Assembly (NCBI GenBank): GCA_051532055.1
Contig: JAOPTX010000044.1
Coordinates: 34,945 to 98,944 of the forward strand
DNA: 64,000 nt
DNA from: Fibrobacterales bacterium
Lineage (GTDB): Bacteria > Fibrobacterota > Fibrobacteria > Fibrobacterales > JAOPTW01
Reading direction: 5' to 3'
The position numbers were made by a program. Positions 45,001 through 64,000 of this stretch are shown piece after piece; within the stretch, counting starts at the first letter, position 1; each line of letters starts with the position of its first letter.

Positions 45001-48000
45001 TAAAGAGGCGCAAGAGGCTGAGAAAAAAATTCATAGTGGAAGTGCCATCCCTGATGATGCACCTGAATTTCAATTCCCCGCCGGTGATATGGGGCTTCTC
45101 GCTCTCCTTCTTGAGGTGAAAGCGTTTAATTCTAAAGGTGAAGCACGTCGAATGATTCAGAATGGCGGAGTTAAATTTAACGGAGAAAAATTGACTGATC
45201 CTGGATCAACGGTTGTTATCGTTGAAGGAATGGCACTCGTTATTCAGGTAGGGAAACGTAAGTTTTTTAAAGTGAATCACTAGATAACTTAACTATCTAT
45301 CTATTTGAAAAGAGTCTACTTCGGTAGGCTCTTTTTTTTATGGATACTTATTCTGGAAATATGTTAAAACGGACTTAAATACAGTAAAAAAGAGCTTTTA
45401 TATTGAAGCTAAATACACGTTTGGTATTAAAGAATATGACAACAAATATTGAATTTAGACCCAATGTCGCAATTCTAATTTTCCTATATTGTTTTATGAA
45501 AATAATATAAGGATTAGTAATGAAATTCATTTTTGCCATAGCCATACTCTCACTTGTCATTGTCGGATGTAAAGAAGAAAAAATCAGAACATACACTGAA
45601 AAACCTGCATCAATGGCACCACAGCCACCAACTGATCAGAAGGATATGCCAAAGATGCCTGCAGGGCACCCACCTATAGATCAAAATAGCCCGAGTATGG
45701 GCGCCGCCCCCCAAGGAGCGCCTACTAGAACAGCCAATGATACACGTCCAAAATTTAGTTGGAAACTCCCTAAAGGGTGGTTGGTTCAAGAAGGTGGCGG
45801 TATGATCACAGCAACCTATTTTCCAGACGATGGGACAAACAGTTTCAAAGCAACTCTTATAATTTTAGGGGGGATGGCAGGAGGAGTCGATGCTAATCTT
45901 GAACGATGGCTTGGACAAATTGGACTCCCTTCTGATCCTGGGACTATTGCAAAAGTAAAAAATGGGGCTACTCAGGTAGCAGGGGTTAATGTTAAAGGAA
46001 GTCTTTATGATCTTACCTTACAGGCAACTCAAGAAAAAACCTTTCTCGTAACGATTCTTCCAGTTGAGGAGTATTCGGTATTTGTCAAGTTCATGGCTGC
46101 ACCTGATGTGGCAAAAGCTCAAAAACAGAATTTCACCGCACTACTTAACTCACTGGAGTATACTGCAAATGGCAATTAGCACCCTCCGGACTAAAATTAG
46201 AAGAAACAAAGTAATGAAAGTATTAACATCACTCTCCTTAACGACTGTGTGTTTAATACTGCTGCTGATTCTCACTTTTTTTGGAACCCTGTATCAGACT
46301 GATAATGGGCTCTATAGAGCCCAACAGGTCTTTTTTAACTCGTGGTTTCTCTTTTTTCCTTTTCCAGGGGCAAAGCTTGTATTGATGATACTCGGAGTAA
46401 ACTTATTAAGTGTACTCCTCCTCGTATTAAAATACAGTTGGAAAAAGTCTGGTCTAGTCTTGATGCACTGGGGGCTTACGCTTCTGGTAGTTGGGTCTGG
46501 CATTACGTACTATTTTGCACAAGAGTCGATCCTCACTCTTTCTGAAGGTGAAGTTAAGACGTCTTCGGTTATTAATAGTATATGGGAACTTAAGGTATCT
46601 CAGGAGCGCAATGGTGAAAAAATAACAACAGCTGTAAGCGTTGACCTTCTAAAGCCAGGAACACCCATTGCCCTAGAAGCCCAAGGAGTGACGGTAGTAC
46701 CCGAAGTCTATTATATAAATGCTGGAGCCTTTCAAGATACTACTGGCTGGCAACAGCGTGAAGGTGTATTGCCTGTAAATTTAAATGCACAAAAAAAATA
46801 TATAAATGGGTCGGGAATTACCTCTATCAGAGAGCGGGAGCCTGTTCCTGAAATTTCACAGAATATTCCCGGAATGCTTTTTTTGACTGGCACTCTTGAT
46901 AACAGTGGCACGAAGGAAAAAGTACTCTTGTCGGGATATGAAACTGAACCAACAATGGTAACGATTGGGAGTAAGGACTATTGGTTTCATCTTTCAAGAA
47001 CAACGGTACCACTTCCTATTGCAATAAAGCTTATTGATTTCGTGAAAACTGATCATCCGGGAATCTCAATGGCAAAAGCCTATGAGAGTACTGTGGCTAT
47101 CGAAGAGAACGGAATTCAACGTGAGCTTAAAATTTCTATGAATGAACCACTGAGAACTCATGGATTTACTTTTTTCCAATCATCATTTTCTAAAGATGGT
47201 ATGGGGCGTGAAGTCTCTATTTTTCAAGTAGTTGAGAATCCAGGACGAGTAATTCCCTATCTATCGAGTATAATAATCGGATTTGGTTTGTTACTTCACT
47301 TTATTTTACTCTTGATTAACCGCCTTAAAAAGGAGCGAGTATGAAATTAATACTATTACTCAGCTTATTTATTTCAGTTACTTTTGCACAGTTTCCTCAA
47401 TTTGATTATAGCAGCTATGGTAATCTTCTCATTCAGAATGAAGGGCGGTATAAACCACTTGACTCCTATGCACGACATATGCTTTTGGAGTATTCGGGTA
47501 AGAGTACTATCAAGATTGAAGGTGAAAAATATTCAGCCCTTGATTGGATGAATATGGTGATTTTTAATCACCCATTGGCGAGTAGTGCTCAATGCTTTCT
47601 CATTAATAATCCTCAGGTAGTTGATGCCTATGGGGTAAAGAGGAATACGCATCGAACGTACTCATATACAGATCTACTCCCGGCTCAGCAGCGCATTACT
47701 GAGCTTGCTCAAGCAGTGATGCAGGTGGATTCAAAAAAGCGAAGTGATGTAGAGCGAGAGTTCTTACGGGTCTATTCACTCTTTCAAAAACTCCAAGAGC
47801 ATAGTGCAGCATTTACTTTTGCACAAAAGCATGAGACTTTTCGTGTCAAAACACAGGAGACCGCAAACCTGTTAGCTCTTGATACGGGGCTCTATAGTTA
47901 TTTAGAGATACGAGAGAAGGCCGATACATTGTCACGACTTATTGAGAGTATTTCAAAAAAAACGGTTGAGAATTGGACTACTTCTGATAGCACGTTGTCA

Positions 48001-63000: not shown

Positions 63001-64000
63001 AATCAAATAGTTATGGGTATAGCTGTGGTGAATGCCATAAAGGGTATAGAGTAGATAGTGTTTTAGCGACTAATGCTCTCCTTCATACAAATGGAGTAGT
63101 GAATGTCGAATATAACTCTCTTCCTGGTATGAGGAAAACAATGGTAGGGGTGACCTGCTCAAATATTGCATGCCATGGTGCGGAAATGAGTAATAATTCA
63201 GGAATTGTGTGGAATAGTAGTTCTAATTTGGGTGATACCGTTGGATGTCAAACATGTCATAGTACAGGGGTCGGTTTAGTAACAGGACATAGAGGCGGGA
63301 ATGGCGCATGCTTTGGCTGTCATAGTACTGTTGTAGAGGGCACGATTGATGCTATGACCATTAAGGATTACACAAAACATATTAACGGACAAGTGGATTT
63401 TTAAAATCAAACAAGGAGATACAATGAAAGTTAGTGTAATAAGTCTCGTATTTATTCTAGGAATATTTTGGGTAGGTACAGTACAGGCTGCAGACCCAGC
63501 ACATAAGTTTGTCGGTGCTGGTAAATGTAAAACATGCCATAAAAAGAAGAAGGATGGTGAACAATATCAGCAATGGCAGAAATCCGGTCATGCTCAAGCA
63601 TATAAAACCTTAGGAACTGCCGAGGCTAAAGAAGTTGCGAAAAAGAATGGCGTCACCGGTGATCCTCAAAAAGCACCGCAGTGTTTGAAGTGCCATGTTA
63701 CGGCATATGGTGTTGATGCAAAATATTTAGATAAGAGCTACAAAATGGAGGATGGCGTACAATGTGAAAGTTGCCATGGGCCGGGAAAAGATTACAAAAA
63801 GAAAAAGGTTATGAAAGACCATGCGAAATCAATTGCAGCAGGAATGATTGTTCCCGATGAAAAAATGTGTAAGACTTGTCATAATAAAGAGTCGCCAACC
63901 TACAAACCTTTTGATTATAAGAAGAAGTATAAAAAGGTTGATCATCCCATACCAGGGAAAAAGTAAACGATTAGCTATGATAGACATTTCAACAGAAAAG

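Follow-up and report, generated by a model that had tools for sequence, protein, structure and literature searches.

A marine bacterium related to cellulose-fermenting Fibrobacter, known as a metagenome-assembled genome (MAG), carries a row of six genes (57322 to 63966, forward strand) that, judged from sequence and with a probability of roughly 55%, encodes a porin-cytochrome (Pcc)-type conduit for extracellular electron transfer. Conduits of this kind are already known; the new element is the occurrence in the Fibrobacterales, and our literature search found no report of such an electron-export system in the bacterial group of Fibrobacter. The window analyzed is a 64,000-nucleotide stretch of one contig. 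A preliminary description had placed seven multiheme cytochrome genes here, with 6, 8, 6, 11, 9, 4, and 4 CxxCH motifs, and an open reading frame (ORF) and motif scan returned exactly these places and counts. Among ORFs of at least 60 amino acids (aa) in the 5.17-Mb genome, 15 contain at least three CxxCH motifs, 7 of which lie within 17.8 kb of the window (46169 to 63966).

The apparent six-gene operon and its proposed electron route

The genes for the ImcH-type protein, the CbcL-type fusion, the barrel, the 9-heme cytochrome, the 5-heme lipoprotein, and the c554-like cytochrome follow one another in that order with gaps of 50, 36, 1, 10, and 19 nt (Table 1). No convincing terminator was found between any of them, from ImcH through c554, and they appear to form one operon. 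In the route that we infer, Na+-NQR and other dehydrogenases would feed menaquinol, which would be oxidized at the inner membrane by two enzymes, one of the ImcH type (7 hemes) and one of the CbcL type (11 hemes plus a diheme b domain). Electrons would cross the periplasm on the c554-like tetraheme cytochrome, enter the 9-heme cytochrome threaded through the plugless 22-strand outer membrane barrel, and leave via the 5-heme lipoprotein at the outer face. The acceptor would be insoluble or too large for entry into the cell; oxides of Fe(III) or Mn(IV), humic substances, and partner cells are the candidates. The putatively sigma-54-controlled lipoprotein cytochromes MHC6L and MHC8L (6 and 8 hemes) may also contribute, and the heme load would be met by the neighboring, dedicated System II maturation pair and HemA.

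Table 1. Features of the cluster and its upstream neighborhood (positions in the window)
Position	Strand	Feature	Basis
45520..46179	+	219-aa lipoprotein, directly 5' of ResB-like gene	N-terminal lipobox
46214..47344	+	ResB/CcsB-like System II cytochrome c maturation protein, short form	PF05140
47341..49197	+	CcsA-type heme-handling protein, long N-terminal periplasmic domain	PF01578
49428..50573	-	MHC6L, 6-heme lipoprotein cytochrome, NrfA-like C-terminal stretch	6 CxxCH, lipobox
50618..50633	-	Sigma-54-type -24/-12 element, 45 nt 5' of MHC6L	two mismatches, GG and GC kept
51535..52803 (long ORF to 52917)	-	MHC8L, 8-heme lipoprotein cytochrome	8 CxxCH
52851..52866	-	Sigma-54-type -24/-12 element, 48 nt 5' of MHC8L start	two mismatches to consensus
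53000..54364	-	NtrC-type sigma-54-dependent response regulator	PF00072, PF00158 (E 5.8e-69), PF02954
54361..55842	-	Membrane sensor histidine kinase	PF00512, PF02518; two hydrophobic segments
55854..57125	-	HemA, glutamyl-tRNA reductase, first heme synthesis step	PF05201, PF01488, PF00745
57322..58791	+	ImcH-type inner membrane multiheme quinol dehydrogenase, 489 aa	6 CxxCH, one CxxxCH
58841..60772	+	CbcL/MtrH/MtoC-type fusion, periplasmic 11-heme domain and diheme b membrane domain	11 CxxCH
60808..62040	+	Outer membrane beta-barrel, ~22 strands, no plug, 410 aa (conduit porin)	AF2 model
62042..62839	+	9-heme periplasmic cytochrome, c7-type units, candidate wire in barrel	9 CxxCH, signal peptide
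62850..63404	+	Lipoprotein cytochrome, candidate outer-face partner	4 CxxCH, one CxxxxCH, lipobox
63424..63966	+	c554-like soluble tetraheme cytochrome, candidate periplasmic shuttle	4 CxxCH

The ImcH-type protein has three N-terminal hydrophobic helices by hydropathy, a CxxxCH motif at residue 124, and a NapC/NirT domain (PF03264) covering residues 91 to 180; it matches NrfH (2j7a_C, E 1.4e-5) and aligns with ImcH-type proteins of many phyla at 40 to 46% identity over 98 to 99% of the length. Every ImcH feature named in the parts of Zhong and Shi (2018; PMC6295460) used here is present in a comparison made from the description: three transmembrane helices, a CX3CH motif beside the third, six CX2CH motifs, and a NapC/NirT-like stretch. 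The Geobacter sulfurreducens protein (Levar et al. 2014, as presented in those parts of PMC6295460) shares this layout, with the CX3CH motif after the third helix, and ImcH lengths are given there as ~490 to 520 aa, against 489 aa here. A difference is that imcH in the window lies directly 5' of cbcL and a porin-cytochrome unit; the same parts of Zhong and Shi (PMC6295460) report no mtrAB or mtoAB adjoining imcH.

The fusion of a b-type cytochrome with 11 c-heme motifs, recorded earlier together with a second one bearing 7 on another contig (C23), was recovered, as was the second, a CbcL-type paralogue paired with an Otr-family octaheme cytochrome. The 11-heme protein has a signal peptide, four or five hydrophobic helices, and a Ni_hydr_CYTB domain (PF01292, E 3.1e-16), and its His434, His473, His583, and His598 align with His18, His57, His155, and His169 of FdnI (1kqf_C). 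It shows the CbcL features of an N-terminal multiheme domain and an FdnI/HydC-like b domain with all four His positions, and it resembles the CbcL/MtrH/MtoC family in the fusion of a multiheme domain to a HydC/FdnI-like diheme b domain (Zacharoff et al. 2015, via the parts of PMC6295460 used, where the family ranges from 3 to 23 hemes). CbcL itself has 9 hemes and six predicted membrane segments, compared with 11 hemes and, by simple hydropathy, five segments here.

Homologs of CbcL/MtrH/MtoC occur in Fe(II) oxidizers as well as in Fe(III) reducers in the sections of Zhong and Shi (2018; PMC6295460) used, and the same conduit might run in reverse, with Fe(II) minerals, a partner cell, or a cathode as the outside source of electrons. 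The electrons would reach the cbb3/caa3 oxidases or Nap by way of c554, or the quinone pool by way of CbcL, a route like that proposed for MtoAB/MtoC. The genome does have two O2 reductases and Nap, and one relative (G244) carries a COX2-COX1-COX3 operon directly 5' of its barrel, 8-heme, and CbcL-like genes, although this adjacency in a single relative may merely reflect a respiratory island. ImcH, which heads the operon, has homologs only in Fe(III) reducers in the same sections of PMC6295460, and we consider electron uptake unlikely.

The AF2 model of the barrel is all strand (pLDDT 87.7). Its best structural matches are 22-strand TonB-dependent transporter barrels (Z 19.2 over 334 residues, the barrel part only), and MtrB is matched with Z 14.9 in the same kind of search; no Pfam or NCBIfam family was matched. 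The family is rare, with members in 12/296 Fibrobacterota genomes at E below 1e-20 and 14 representatives among 1.84 billion proteins, and appears to sit mostly inside the phylum. A plugless barrel with a 22-strand-wide lumen needs a filler, for which the 9-heme protein, encoded from 1 nt past the end of the barrel gene, is the candidate. Its profile matches 3ov0_A (E 2.6e-28) and, weakly, 6r2q_A (E 1.3e-4), which we take to be MtrA. Complex prediction from our own alignments, with no hemes in the model, scored 0.51 for barrel plus 9-heme protein, against 0.00 for the best control; contacts agreed by at least 86% between runs, and the partner pLDDT was at least 65. The mark applied was reached by 116/157 solved complexes and 2/215 mismatched pairs, with 18 of the 157 solved complexes and both mismatches reaching it at scores of 0.60 or lower, so that the model weakly favors the pairing. 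The 5-heme lipoprotein carries a CxxxxCH/CxxCH domain (TIGR01904, 27.0 bits, cutoff 27) and is a small candidate outer-face cytochrome, surface location not being predictable for Fibrobacterota. The c554-like protein matches PF13435 (E 8.8e-22) and 1bvb_A (E 3.8e-10).

Known conduits, distribution, and origin

The predicted module of barrel, 9-heme, and 5-heme proteins fits the Pcc definition in the portions of Shi et al. (2014; PMC4245776) consulted, namely, a porin of 18 to 22 strands, a periplasmic cytochrome of 5 to 14 hemes, and an outer cytochrome often bearing an atypical heme motif. Likened by description, the G. sulfurreducens Pcc (OmbB-OmaB-OmcB; Liu et al. 2014; PMC4245776, in part) is likewise a three-gene unit of porin, periplasmic cytochrome, and outer lipoprotein cytochrome, clustered with inner membrane and periplasmic cytochromes. 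The window unit differs in that its barrel comes from a rare family outside Pfam and NCBIfam, its outer cytochrome has 5 hemes rather than the 12 of OmcB, and it shares one apparent operon with both ImcH and CbcL.

Shewanella MtrCAB is similar in having a cytochrome wire in a barrel and an outer lipoprotein cytochrome. MtrB has 26 strands. Its chain in 6r2q has 649 residues, and the two MtrCAB cytochromes carry 10 hemes each; in the window, the barrel has 410 aa and ~22 strands and the cytochromes have 9 and 5 hemes, and the module falls outside the Mtr family. The Pcc-like clusters known from Ignavibacteriota and Bacteroidota (Ignavibacterium album IALB_1837-1839, in the parts of PMC4245776 used, and our loci L014, L016, L021, and L027) have the same parts list: a CbcL-like protein, ImcH, a c554-like protein, a barrel of ~430 aa, a multiheme protein collinear with the 9-heme one, and a lipoprotein cytochrome. 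They differ in a wire of 12 to 14 hemes, 13 hemes in CbcL, gene order, an ImcH of another clade, and barrels of marginal similarity to that of the window (E 4.6e-5 at best).

Within the phylum, the cluster layout recurs in the sister genome G238 at 82 to 95% identity, and the barrel is followed directly by an 8- to 9-heme ORF (~250 aa) and a 4-heme ORF at 4/4 other Fibrobacterota loci inspected (G242, G263, G248, and G274). In G244, the barrel-family gene precedes genes for an 8-heme cytochrome, a CbcL-like fusion, and 3-, 25-, and 6-heme cytochromes. Six genomes of another Fibrobacterota group (f7) have the barrel triad, and our queries found no ImcH or CbcL in them, which indicates that the inner and outer membrane modules are separable. 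Among 80 ImcH loci from other phyla, searched for neighbors within 8 kb, a CbcL-like gene turns up at 38, a c554-like gene at 21, and a 9-heme protein relative with 11 to 14 hemes (12 to 14 in 13 cases) at 14. At 10 of these 14 loci, a heme-less ORF of 401 to 486 aa stands between the c554-like gene (or ImcH) and the 9-heme relative, in most cases directly 5' of the latter; barrel similarity was detectable for only three such ORFs (E 4.6e-5 to 3.6e-3).

The genome being a metagenome bin, it had been cautioned that contigs could be foreign, and the cluster might be misbinned or very recently acquired. Full-length ImcH-type genes occur in just 1/156 other Fibrobacterales genomes, and in the tree the Fibrobacterota proteins are sister to those of Omnitrophota/Planctomycetota, not Bacteroidota. 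Against this, the five Fibrobacterota proteins form one clade of their own (98% SH-like support), the barrel family lies mostly within the phylum, and the 149.5-kb contig has an even G+C content (0.37 to 0.46), with ordinary housekeeping genes in the 44 kb upstream of the cluster. The TyrRS encoded 12 kb 5' of the cluster shares 97% identity with the TyrRS of the independent sister MAG, on the contig bearing the sister cluster, and 57 to 70% identity with Fibrobacterales/Fibrobacter records, the best match being Fibrobacterales. A Fibrobacterales-type TyrRS this close and the recurrence of the cluster with its surroundings in the sister genome indicate a native contig, and we regard a foreign or very recent origin as highly improbable.

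Maturation, heme supply, and regulation upstream

The ResB-like protein matches PF05140 partially (E 1.4e-11) and has hydrophobic segments at both ends. Its CcsA-type neighbor matches PF01578 (E 7e-24) and TIGR03144 (133.7 bits, under the cutoff of 187.6) and is one of two PF01578 proteins in the genome, the other being on C26. Genes for ResB, CcsA, and ImcH adjoin one another in G240 and G242. The 219-aa lipoprotein matched no Pfam or NCBIfam family, and its part in the electron transfer system is uncertain.

MHC6L matches PF22113, PF14522, and PF02335, and relatives are found at 12/80 ImcH loci of other phyla. The element 5' of it retains rightly spaced GG/GC dinucleotides relative to the sigma-54 consensus, which we take to be TGGCAC-N5-TTGC. 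MHC8L probably starts at the internal Met at 52803, after which the lipobox comes; the second element falls within the extra 5' part of the long ORF, a further point in favor of the shorter gene. A terminator-like hairpin lies by MHC8L at 51505-51482. The sole hint of expression comes from an RNA library of the same sample, which may contain DNA: its contigs are identical over most of MHC6L (49601-50509), 510 nt of the barrel gene, and 45512-45733 in the 219-aa lipoprotein gene, others lie over 51782-51991 and 52055-52759 in MHC8L, and 19/30 depth bins are covered and 11/30 are without coverage. HemA lies near ImcH at 6/80 loci of other phyla.

The respiratory chain around the cluster

The genome encodes a branched respiratory chain, and most of the parts listed in the preliminary description were confirmed. 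The caa3 oxidase on C6 comprises CtaD, a CoxB-cytochrome c fusion, CtaE, and CtaB. NapA on C27 (971.8 bits, cutoff 904), NrfH (149, cutoff 134.2) and NrfA (661.8, cutoff 595) on C26, and the Otr-family octaheme protein on C23 (555.6 bits, cutoff 375) all stand, as do NqrB/C/D (C1) and RnfC/D/G/E (C10), each over its cutoff. No complex I was detected: neither Proton_antipo_M nor Complex1_49kDa was found in the genome, rated 94.4% complete. Menaquinone is synthesized by the futalosine route, to judge from two MqnA/D genes and a search of the genome that found no MenA. COX1 genes lie on C6 and C67; the supposed two cbb3 loci are instead a single operon interrupted by a contig break: CcoN(O) lies at the end of C67, and the end of C8 carries the rest of CcoO along with CcoP, CcoG, and a P-type ATPase. 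NirBD is present on C2 and C67 as described, in a cytoplasmic, assimilatory-type form rather than a respiratory one. Only two molybdopterin subunits are encoded, on C27 and C2, and the latter, previously taken for a respiratory DMSO-family enzyme, is cytoplasmic; its best score as Fdh-alpha/NasA/NasC-like and its location between Moa/Mob genes and NirBD mark it as assimilatory-type. The "DmsABC-like" pair on C67 proved to be a DsrO-like Fe-S protein and a DsrP/NrfD-like membrane protein with no catalytic molybdenum subunit; lying behind two tetraheme ORFs and 6 kb 5' of ccoN, the four are a candidate separate quinol:cytochrome c module.

No bc1 cytochrome b (PF00033) and no cytochrome bd were found in the genome, which has two cytochrome c oxidases, so that ImcH, CbcL, and c554 could mainly serve these oxidases, NrfA, or Nap. 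The cluster would then be a periplasmic distribution network only: ImcH and CbcL would replace bc1 and feed c554 and other cytochromes, with O2 (caa3/cbb3), nitrite (NrfA), nitrate (Nap), or sulfur compounds (Otr) as acceptors, while the barrel would be a porin of the ordinary kind and the small cytochromes would be periplasmic. ImcH with CcsBA and an adjoining c554 does occur away from the barrel in G240 and G242, and the weak barrel/9-heme prediction is consistent with such a network. Yet the order of barrel, 9-heme, and 4- to 5-heme genes, with overlapping or 1-nt junctions, is common to at least three families; barrel relatives adjoin 25- and 19-heme cytochromes; a plugless 22-strand barrel differs from general diffusion porins of 16 to 18 strands; and C67 has a separate candidate quinol:cytochrome c module. 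We regard this network as possible but rather unlikely, and the outward conduit remains our preferred reading. The cluster contains the parts that define a porin-cytochrome pathway of the ImcH/CbcL kind, which strengthens the earlier guess at an extracellular acceptor.

Of the facultatively respiring generalist proposed before, the branched chain and NQR without detectable complex I hold, whereas two cbb3 oxidases, the role given to NirBD and the C2 enzyme, and the contrast with a strictly fermenting order do not; respiration itself does not follow from the presence of the genes. That contrast is largely a sampling effect, 151/156 other Fibrobacterales genomes coming from one gut-dominated family; COX1, put at 4/156 of them, was recounted at 5/156. 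Respiratory chains had already been inferred for Fibromonadaceae in the part of Abdul Rahman et al. (2016; PMC4704652) used here. Across the phylum, heme-copper oxidase genes are present in 67/296 genomes (f7, 32/32; f5, 5/6), a set that includes one unpublished genome (G253), which makes a respiring member of the Fibrobacterota less exceptional than earlier claimed.

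A multiheme cytochrome cluster with a candidate outer membrane unit

The gene order of the cluster on contig C44 (149,550 bases), as read from open reading frames (ORFs), Pfam matches, and motif counts between 45.5 and 64.0 kb of the window, is compiled in the table. Recounting the motifs gave exactly the series of CxxCH counts in the preliminary description (6, 8, 6, 11, 9, 4, and 4), and a whole-genome ORF scan placed within this cluster 7 of the 15 ORFs that contain at least three such motifs. Neither the seven cytochromes nor the barrel protein reached an NCBIfam equivalog cutoff, and the 6-heme and 8-heme lipoproteins had no match below an E value of 0.05 among PDB sequences. 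We assign a probability of about 0.55 to the reading that the cluster encodes a trans-envelope conduit of the porin-cytochrome (Pcc) type: electrons from menaquinol would enter via ImcH-type and CbcL-type proteins, and the conduit would carry them through the envelope to extracellular acceptors. Some probability is reserved for roles not yet thought of.

Gene order of the multiheme cytochrome cluster, in window positions
Feature	Position	Strand
Lipoprotein of no known family	45520-46179	+
ResB-like	about 46214-47344	+
CcsA-like	47341-49197	+
6-heme lipoprotein	49428-50573	-
Small lipoprotein of no stated family	50834-51238	+
8-heme lipoprotein	51535-52803	-
NtrC-type sigma-54 activator	53000-54364	-
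Sensor kinase	54361-55842	-
HemA	55854-57125	-
NapC/NirT-type 6+1-heme protein (ImcH-type)	57322-58791	+
11-heme/cytochrome b fusion (CbcL-type)	58841-60772	+
410-aa protein without heme motif or family (barrel)	60808-62040	+
9-heme protein	62042-62839	+
4+1-heme lipoprotein	62850-63404	+
c554-like tetraheme	63424-63966	+

The barrel protein matched no family in Pfam or NCBIfam, and a word-indexed search recovered a single relative; 14 were recovered when 1.84 billion representatives were searched exhaustively. Its AlphaFold2 model, built from an 18-row alignment, is a confident all-beta barrel (pLDDT 87.7) with 22 to 24 strand segments. The best structural matches in a VIA search were 22-strand barrels from TonB-dependent transporters, with 319 to 347 residues aligned, all within the barrel portion (Z 19.2 to 13), and the model scored Z 17.2 against a 24-strand usher pore and Z 14.9 against MtrB; a Foldseek search of PDB was less informative, returning generic barrels only (TM 0.3 to 0.5). 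A barrel of this predicted width that lacks a plug domain of its own would call for a partner in its lumen. An Atlas look-up, which provides leads only, placed the protein near unnamed clusters of 404 to 422 aa, found most often in Zixibacteria, Thermodesulfobacteriota, and Myxococcota (scores of 0.98 to 0.99), the nearest named clusters being generic barrel families (0.91 to 0.92).

The 9-heme gene starts 1 nt after the stop codon of the barrel gene and encodes a secreted protein with a signal peptide, built of c7-type units. Its profile matches included 3ov0_A (E 2.6e-28), ActA of alternative complex III (about 1e-17), MtrF/MtrC (about 1e-9 to 1e-11), and chain A of 6r2q (1.3e-4). Complex prediction from our own alignments scored the barrel with the 9-heme protein at 0.51, against 0.00 for the best control, with run agreement of at least 86% and a partner pLDDT of at least 65. 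In calibration, 116 of 157 solved complexes passed the mark for such predictions, as against 2 of 215 mismatched pairs; a passing score of 0.60 or lower was seen in only 18 of the solved complexes and in both mismatches. The prediction weakly supports a complex of the two proteins. Directly downstream of the 9-heme gene lies the gene for a lipoprotein with a lipobox, four CxxCH motifs, and one CxxxxCH motif, followed by the c554-like gene. As characterized in the portion of Shi et al. (2014; PMC4245776) that defines them, Pcc systems combine a porin, an adjacent periplasmic multiheme cytochrome with 5 to 14 hemes, and a lipoprotein cytochrome that often carries an atypical heme motif; the three parts in the window match this set, and the lipoprotein is a candidate for the outer membrane cytochrome of the unit. 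The likeness does not extend to MtrCAB, which pairs a 26-strand MtrB-type barrel of about 650 to 700 aa with decaheme MtrA and MtrC, whereas the window encodes a barrel of 410 aa with about 22 strands, whose score against MtrB lies below those against 22-strand barrels, and cytochromes with 9 and 5 hemes.

All five lipoproteins in the table have acidic residues in the first five or six positions past the lipobox Cys, a stretch that we take to resemble the surface-lipoprotein export signal of Bacteroidota; if that signal is valid in Fibrobacterota, surface exposure of the five would be favored. Immediately 3' of the cluster and just beyond the window end, the minus strand (G000:C44:99494-102396; positions 595-3497 of fetched locus L001) encodes a DUF3570 protein (416 aa), a lipoprotein with two CxxCH motifs and one CxxxxCH motif (194 aa), and a DUF2271 protein (300 aa), which may form a second outer membrane/cytochrome unit.

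The ImcH-type and CbcL-type proteins

The ImcH-type protein (489 aa) showed N-terminal hydropathy peaks at residues 15-33, 38-56, and 92-110 in a simple Kyte-Doolittle scan, corresponding to three helices, with a CxxxCH motif at residue 124, right behind the third helix, and CxxCH motifs at residues 149, 198, 304, 421, 441, and 480. All of these heme-motif Cys and His residues were invariant in ImcH alignment A1 (16 sequences). Residues 91-180 matched the NapC/NirT family (PF03264, E 9.5e-11), and NrfH was also matched (2j7a_C, E 1.4e-5). The window protein fits point for point the account of ImcH in the relevant part of Zhong and Shi (2018; PMC6295460), namely, three transmembrane helices, a CX3CH motif next to helix 3, five to nine CX2CH motifs (six in the Geobacter type), and a NapC/NirT-like stretch. 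The family is large and well conserved, with 7,633 of 8,000 scored candidates matching, typically at 44 to 48% identity over the full length. A functional trait of the family is that the reduction of high-potential extracellular acceptors depends on ImcH. Two loci labeled "uncultured Melioribacter sp." (L041 and L075) encode proteins 40 to 42% identical to it over 99% of its length.

The CbcL-type fusion has a signal peptide, 11 CxxCH motifs between residues 37 and 359, and a cytochrome b domain (PF01292, E 3.1e-16). Its His434, His473, His583, and His598 align with His18, His57, His155, and His169 of formate dehydrogenase-N subunit gamma (1kqf_C), which we take to be the heme ligands of FdnI. 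A periplasmic multiheme domain joined to a HydC/FdnI-like diheme b domain is the architecture attributed to CbcL, MtrH, and MtoC in the section of PMC6295460 that covers them, and both domains are found in the window fusion. Among 80 ImcH loci from other phyla, including Omnitrophota, Planctomycetota, Bacteroidota, Ignavibacteriota, Acidobacteriota, and KSB1, 38 had a CbcL-like fusion within 8 kb, to which the window fusion was 27 to 39% identical. The pairing is thus a recurring design and not a local accident. The same hardware could operate inward, for the uptake of electrons from Fe(II) or a cathode, a direction that we consider quite unlikely.

Origin, distribution, and expression of the cluster

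Several lines of evidence indicate that the DNA of the cluster is native. G+C content is even along the window, and the 44 kb upstream of the cluster encodes Mfd, PGI, topoisomerase I, NadE, XseA, ApbE, and similar proteins. The TyrRS gene (44072-45283) encodes a product 97% identical to that of the sister metagenome-assembled genome (MAG), 70% identical to that of another Fibrobacterales MAG, and 57 to 67% identical to Fibrobacter/Fibrobacteraceae records. Five of the 80 listed TyrRS records were titled as other taxa; their identity (62 to 63%) is at the Fibrobacter level, and we read them as mislabeled bins. Misbinning or contamination was rejected on the even G+C, the presence of the cluster in the sister MAG, the TyrRS, and the housekeeping flank; foreign DNA is an extremely improbable explanation. 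Among the housekeeping genes are also those for a 500-aa protein consisting almost wholly of ankyrin repeats (29580-31082, minus strand) and for a lamin-tail-domain protein (41111-42355, plus strand).

The sister genome (G238, same genus) contains the same genes in the same order from the c554-like gene to the 8-heme lipoprotein gene, where the fetched stretch ends, at 82 to 95% identity. Across 296 Fibrobacterota genomes, including the genome under study, full-length ImcH was found in this genome, G238, G240, and G242, and G243 has it in pieces, nine other matches being short NrfH/NapC-like hits; within the order, 1 of 156 other genomes had it at full length. The barrel family was present at E < 1e-20 in 12 of the 296 genomes, from families f1, f5, f7, and f21. 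In all four further loci that were opened, the barrel gene was directly followed by an 8- to 9-heme ORF (about 250 aa) and then a 4-heme ORF, and adjacency to a multiheme cytochrome gene is also kept in G238 and in G244, from another family of the class. The G244 locus (L207, G244:C12:334000-352000) encodes the barrel, an 8-heme protein, a 6-heme CbcL-like fusion, a 3-heme protein, an NHL propeller, a 25-heme protein, and a 6-heme protein, with a COX2-COX1-COX3-COX3 operon directly upstream of the barrel gene. CbcL-like fusions occurred at E < 1e-30 in nine genomes of the phylum, some with 19 hemes.

Outside the phylum, the 9-heme protein is collinear with 12- to 14-heme proteins in Bacteroidota and Ignavibacteriota loci. 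In 10 of 14 loci inspected, the c554-like (or ImcH) gene was separated from the gene for this multiheme relative by an ORF of 401 to 486 aa free of heme motifs, which mostly lay directly upstream of the multiheme gene; only three of these ORFs were detectably similar to the barrel. A quick, midpoint-rooted FastTree phylogeny of limited sampling was built from 83 ImcH proteins, of which 5 belong to Fibrobacterota and 78 come from the set of 80 loci (L017 and L043 were left out for ImcH coverage below 90%). It placed the five Fibrobacterota sequences in one clade (SH-like support of 98), whose sister group is Omnitrophota/Planctomycetota (99), with the Bacteroidota/Ignavibacteriota clades elsewhere in the tree. 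This topology speaks against a recent one-off import, while the deeper history is not settled by the tree. More tentatively, the compact wire, consisting of a plug-less 22-strand barrel, a 9-heme protein, and a 4/5-heme lipoprotein, may be specific to Fibrobacterota, its barrel family being almost unseen outside the phylum, and in this marine genus it is joined with ImcH and CbcL in one operon; a polysaccharide degrader could use it to dump fermentation electrons onto minerals, humics, or partner cells, and one organism would then couple cellulose breakdown to the respiration of metals or electrodes.

Gaps of 50, 36, 1, 10, and 19 nt separate the genes from ImcH to c554, and no convincing terminator interrupts the series, which on this basis is read as one operon. 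Sigma-54-type -24/-12 elements were found on the minus strand at 50618-50633, 45 nt upstream of the 6-heme start, and at 52851-52866, 48 nt upstream of the 8-heme start; each has two mismatches to the consensus. Both genes adjoin the NtrC-type activator gene. With both strands counted, the window contains 44 such matches where 28 are expected, so that two elements at exactly these places are unlikely to arise by chance. By the position of the second element, the 8-heme gene, annotated as a 460-aa ORF, probably starts at an internal Met. The HemA-ImcH intergenic region contained no such element within two mismatches. Contigs from one RNA library of the same sample were identical to 49601-50509 (6-heme) and 61358-61867 (barrel), and shorter identical pieces covered the ResB-like, 8-heme, and regulator genes. 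Depth was present in 19 of 30 bins and missing in 11, including the kinase and most of CbcL, although empty bins are not readable as silence. These contigs, which cannot rank genes and may include DNA carryover, hint that the cluster is transcribed in situ.

Respiratory context in the genome and the phylum

Fibrobacter is the textbook cellulose fermenter, and the phylum is treated as fermentative save for an inferred low-oxygen chain in Fibromonadaceae of the termite gut. In the sections of Abdul Rahman et al. (2016; PMC4704652) that treat respiration, Fibromonadaceae are inferred to have no more than complexes I and II plus cytochrome bd, and Fibrobacteraceae and Chitinivibrionia are called non-respiring. 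Genes for heme-copper oxidases were present in 67 of the 296 genomes (66 of 295 without the unpublished G253); beyond the gut family, members of the phylum commonly have them, and the preliminary description of a respiring member of Fibrobacterales stands as less exceptional than it was presented. Our literature searches found no paper naming Fibrobacter together with porin-cytochrome systems; among the matches for Fibrobacter with ImcH, the one examined proved to be an author's surname, and among those for Fibrobacterota with cytochrome c oxidase, no title dealt with Fibrobacterota respiration. Table 1 of PMC6295460 does not include Fibrobacteres, and where PMC11495043 mentions Fibrobacterota, it names them only for carbohydrate enzymes. 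Each protein type and system type is already known, and surveys place them in 12 to 15 phyla; the cluster has a sequence-distinct barrel family and an unusual union of imcH, cbcL, and an outer membrane unit in one operon, in a phylum for which our searches found no such system reported. The cluster indicates that imcH and cbcL can share an operon with an outer membrane partner, and it adds a small barrel-plus-wire unit to the few porin-cytochrome types open to structural study. If it works as read, some environmental Fibrobacterales would respire insoluble or extracellular acceptors besides O2, nitrate, and nitrite, which would change the view of how carbon from plant and algal polymers reaches metal and humic cycling in marine sediments and would offer bioelectrochemistry a natural route from cellulose to current.

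Much of the respiratory inventory reported earlier was recovered, including an A-type oxidase on contig C6 with a CoxB-cytochrome c fusion; NapA, NrfH, and NrfA, every one above its curated cutoff; two copies of NirBD; and Na+-NQR (NqrBCD) and Rnf (RnfCDGE). The cbb3 genes that had been listed as two loci form one operon split over contig ends: the C67 end (9429-11054) encodes CcoN running into the first 57 positions of CcoO (NF011053, "bifunctional I/II", 926 bits), the C8 end encodes CcoO from position 16 (195396-195992), plus CcoP, CcoG, and a P-type ATPase, and the two ends are probably neighbors. The supposed set of DMSO-family molybdoenzymes was reduced to two molybdopterin subunits, namely, NapA and a NasC/Fdh-like enzyme on C2, whose gene lies among Moa/Mob genes and NirBD in an assimilatory layout. 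The C67 genes described as DmsABC-like instead encode a DsrO-like Fe-S protein and the sole NrfD-family membrane protein of the genome, behind two tetraheme ORFs; the NrfD-family protein scored 351.6 bits with the DsrP model against a cutoff of 350, and this module (G000:C67:3-3255; locus L121, 3-3255) lies upstream of nirBD, narK, and ccoN.

The lack of complex I was borne out for Proton_antipo_M and Complex1_49kDa, and MenA, cytochrome bd, and bc1 cytochrome b were likewise not found in this genome, which is rated 94.4% complete and 0.62% contaminated, a level at which absence is not proven. Two MqnA/D genes, with MenA not found, point to menaquinone made by the futalosine route. With bd and bc1 not found, a route other than bc1 must connect quinol to the two cytochrome c oxidases. 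It may consist of the C67 module (6 kb from ccoN), as a candidate quinol:cytochrome c oxidoreductase, or of the ImcH and CbcL proteins of the window. Another reading takes the cluster as a purely periplasmic network replacing bc1, with a barrel unrelated to it; we regard this as rather unlikely.

Further genes concern cytochrome maturation and sulfur compounds. In the window, the ResB-like protein matched PF05140 partially (E 1.4e-11), and the CcsA-like protein matched PF01578 in full (E 7e-24) but scored 133.7 bits with TIGR03144, below the cutoff of 187.6. A second, short Cytochrom_C_asm gene (268 aa; G000:C26:29622-30170) lies about 6.5 kb from nrfHA and may encode a general or NrfA-dedicated heme lyase, the long CcsA of the window then serving the multiheme cluster. 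On C23, the octaheme cytochrome and b/c fusion were found as previously described (G000:C23:61190-66411; locus L002, 6191-11412): the octaheme protein belongs to the Otr family (TIGR04315, 555.6 bits against a cutoff of 375) and the genes after it encode a 7-heme/PhsC-like cytochrome b fusion, a pair of sulfur-transport proteins, and a rhodanese domain. Together they resemble a self-contained reductase unit that would pass electrons from quinol to sulfur compounds (tetrathionate/thiosulfate type).
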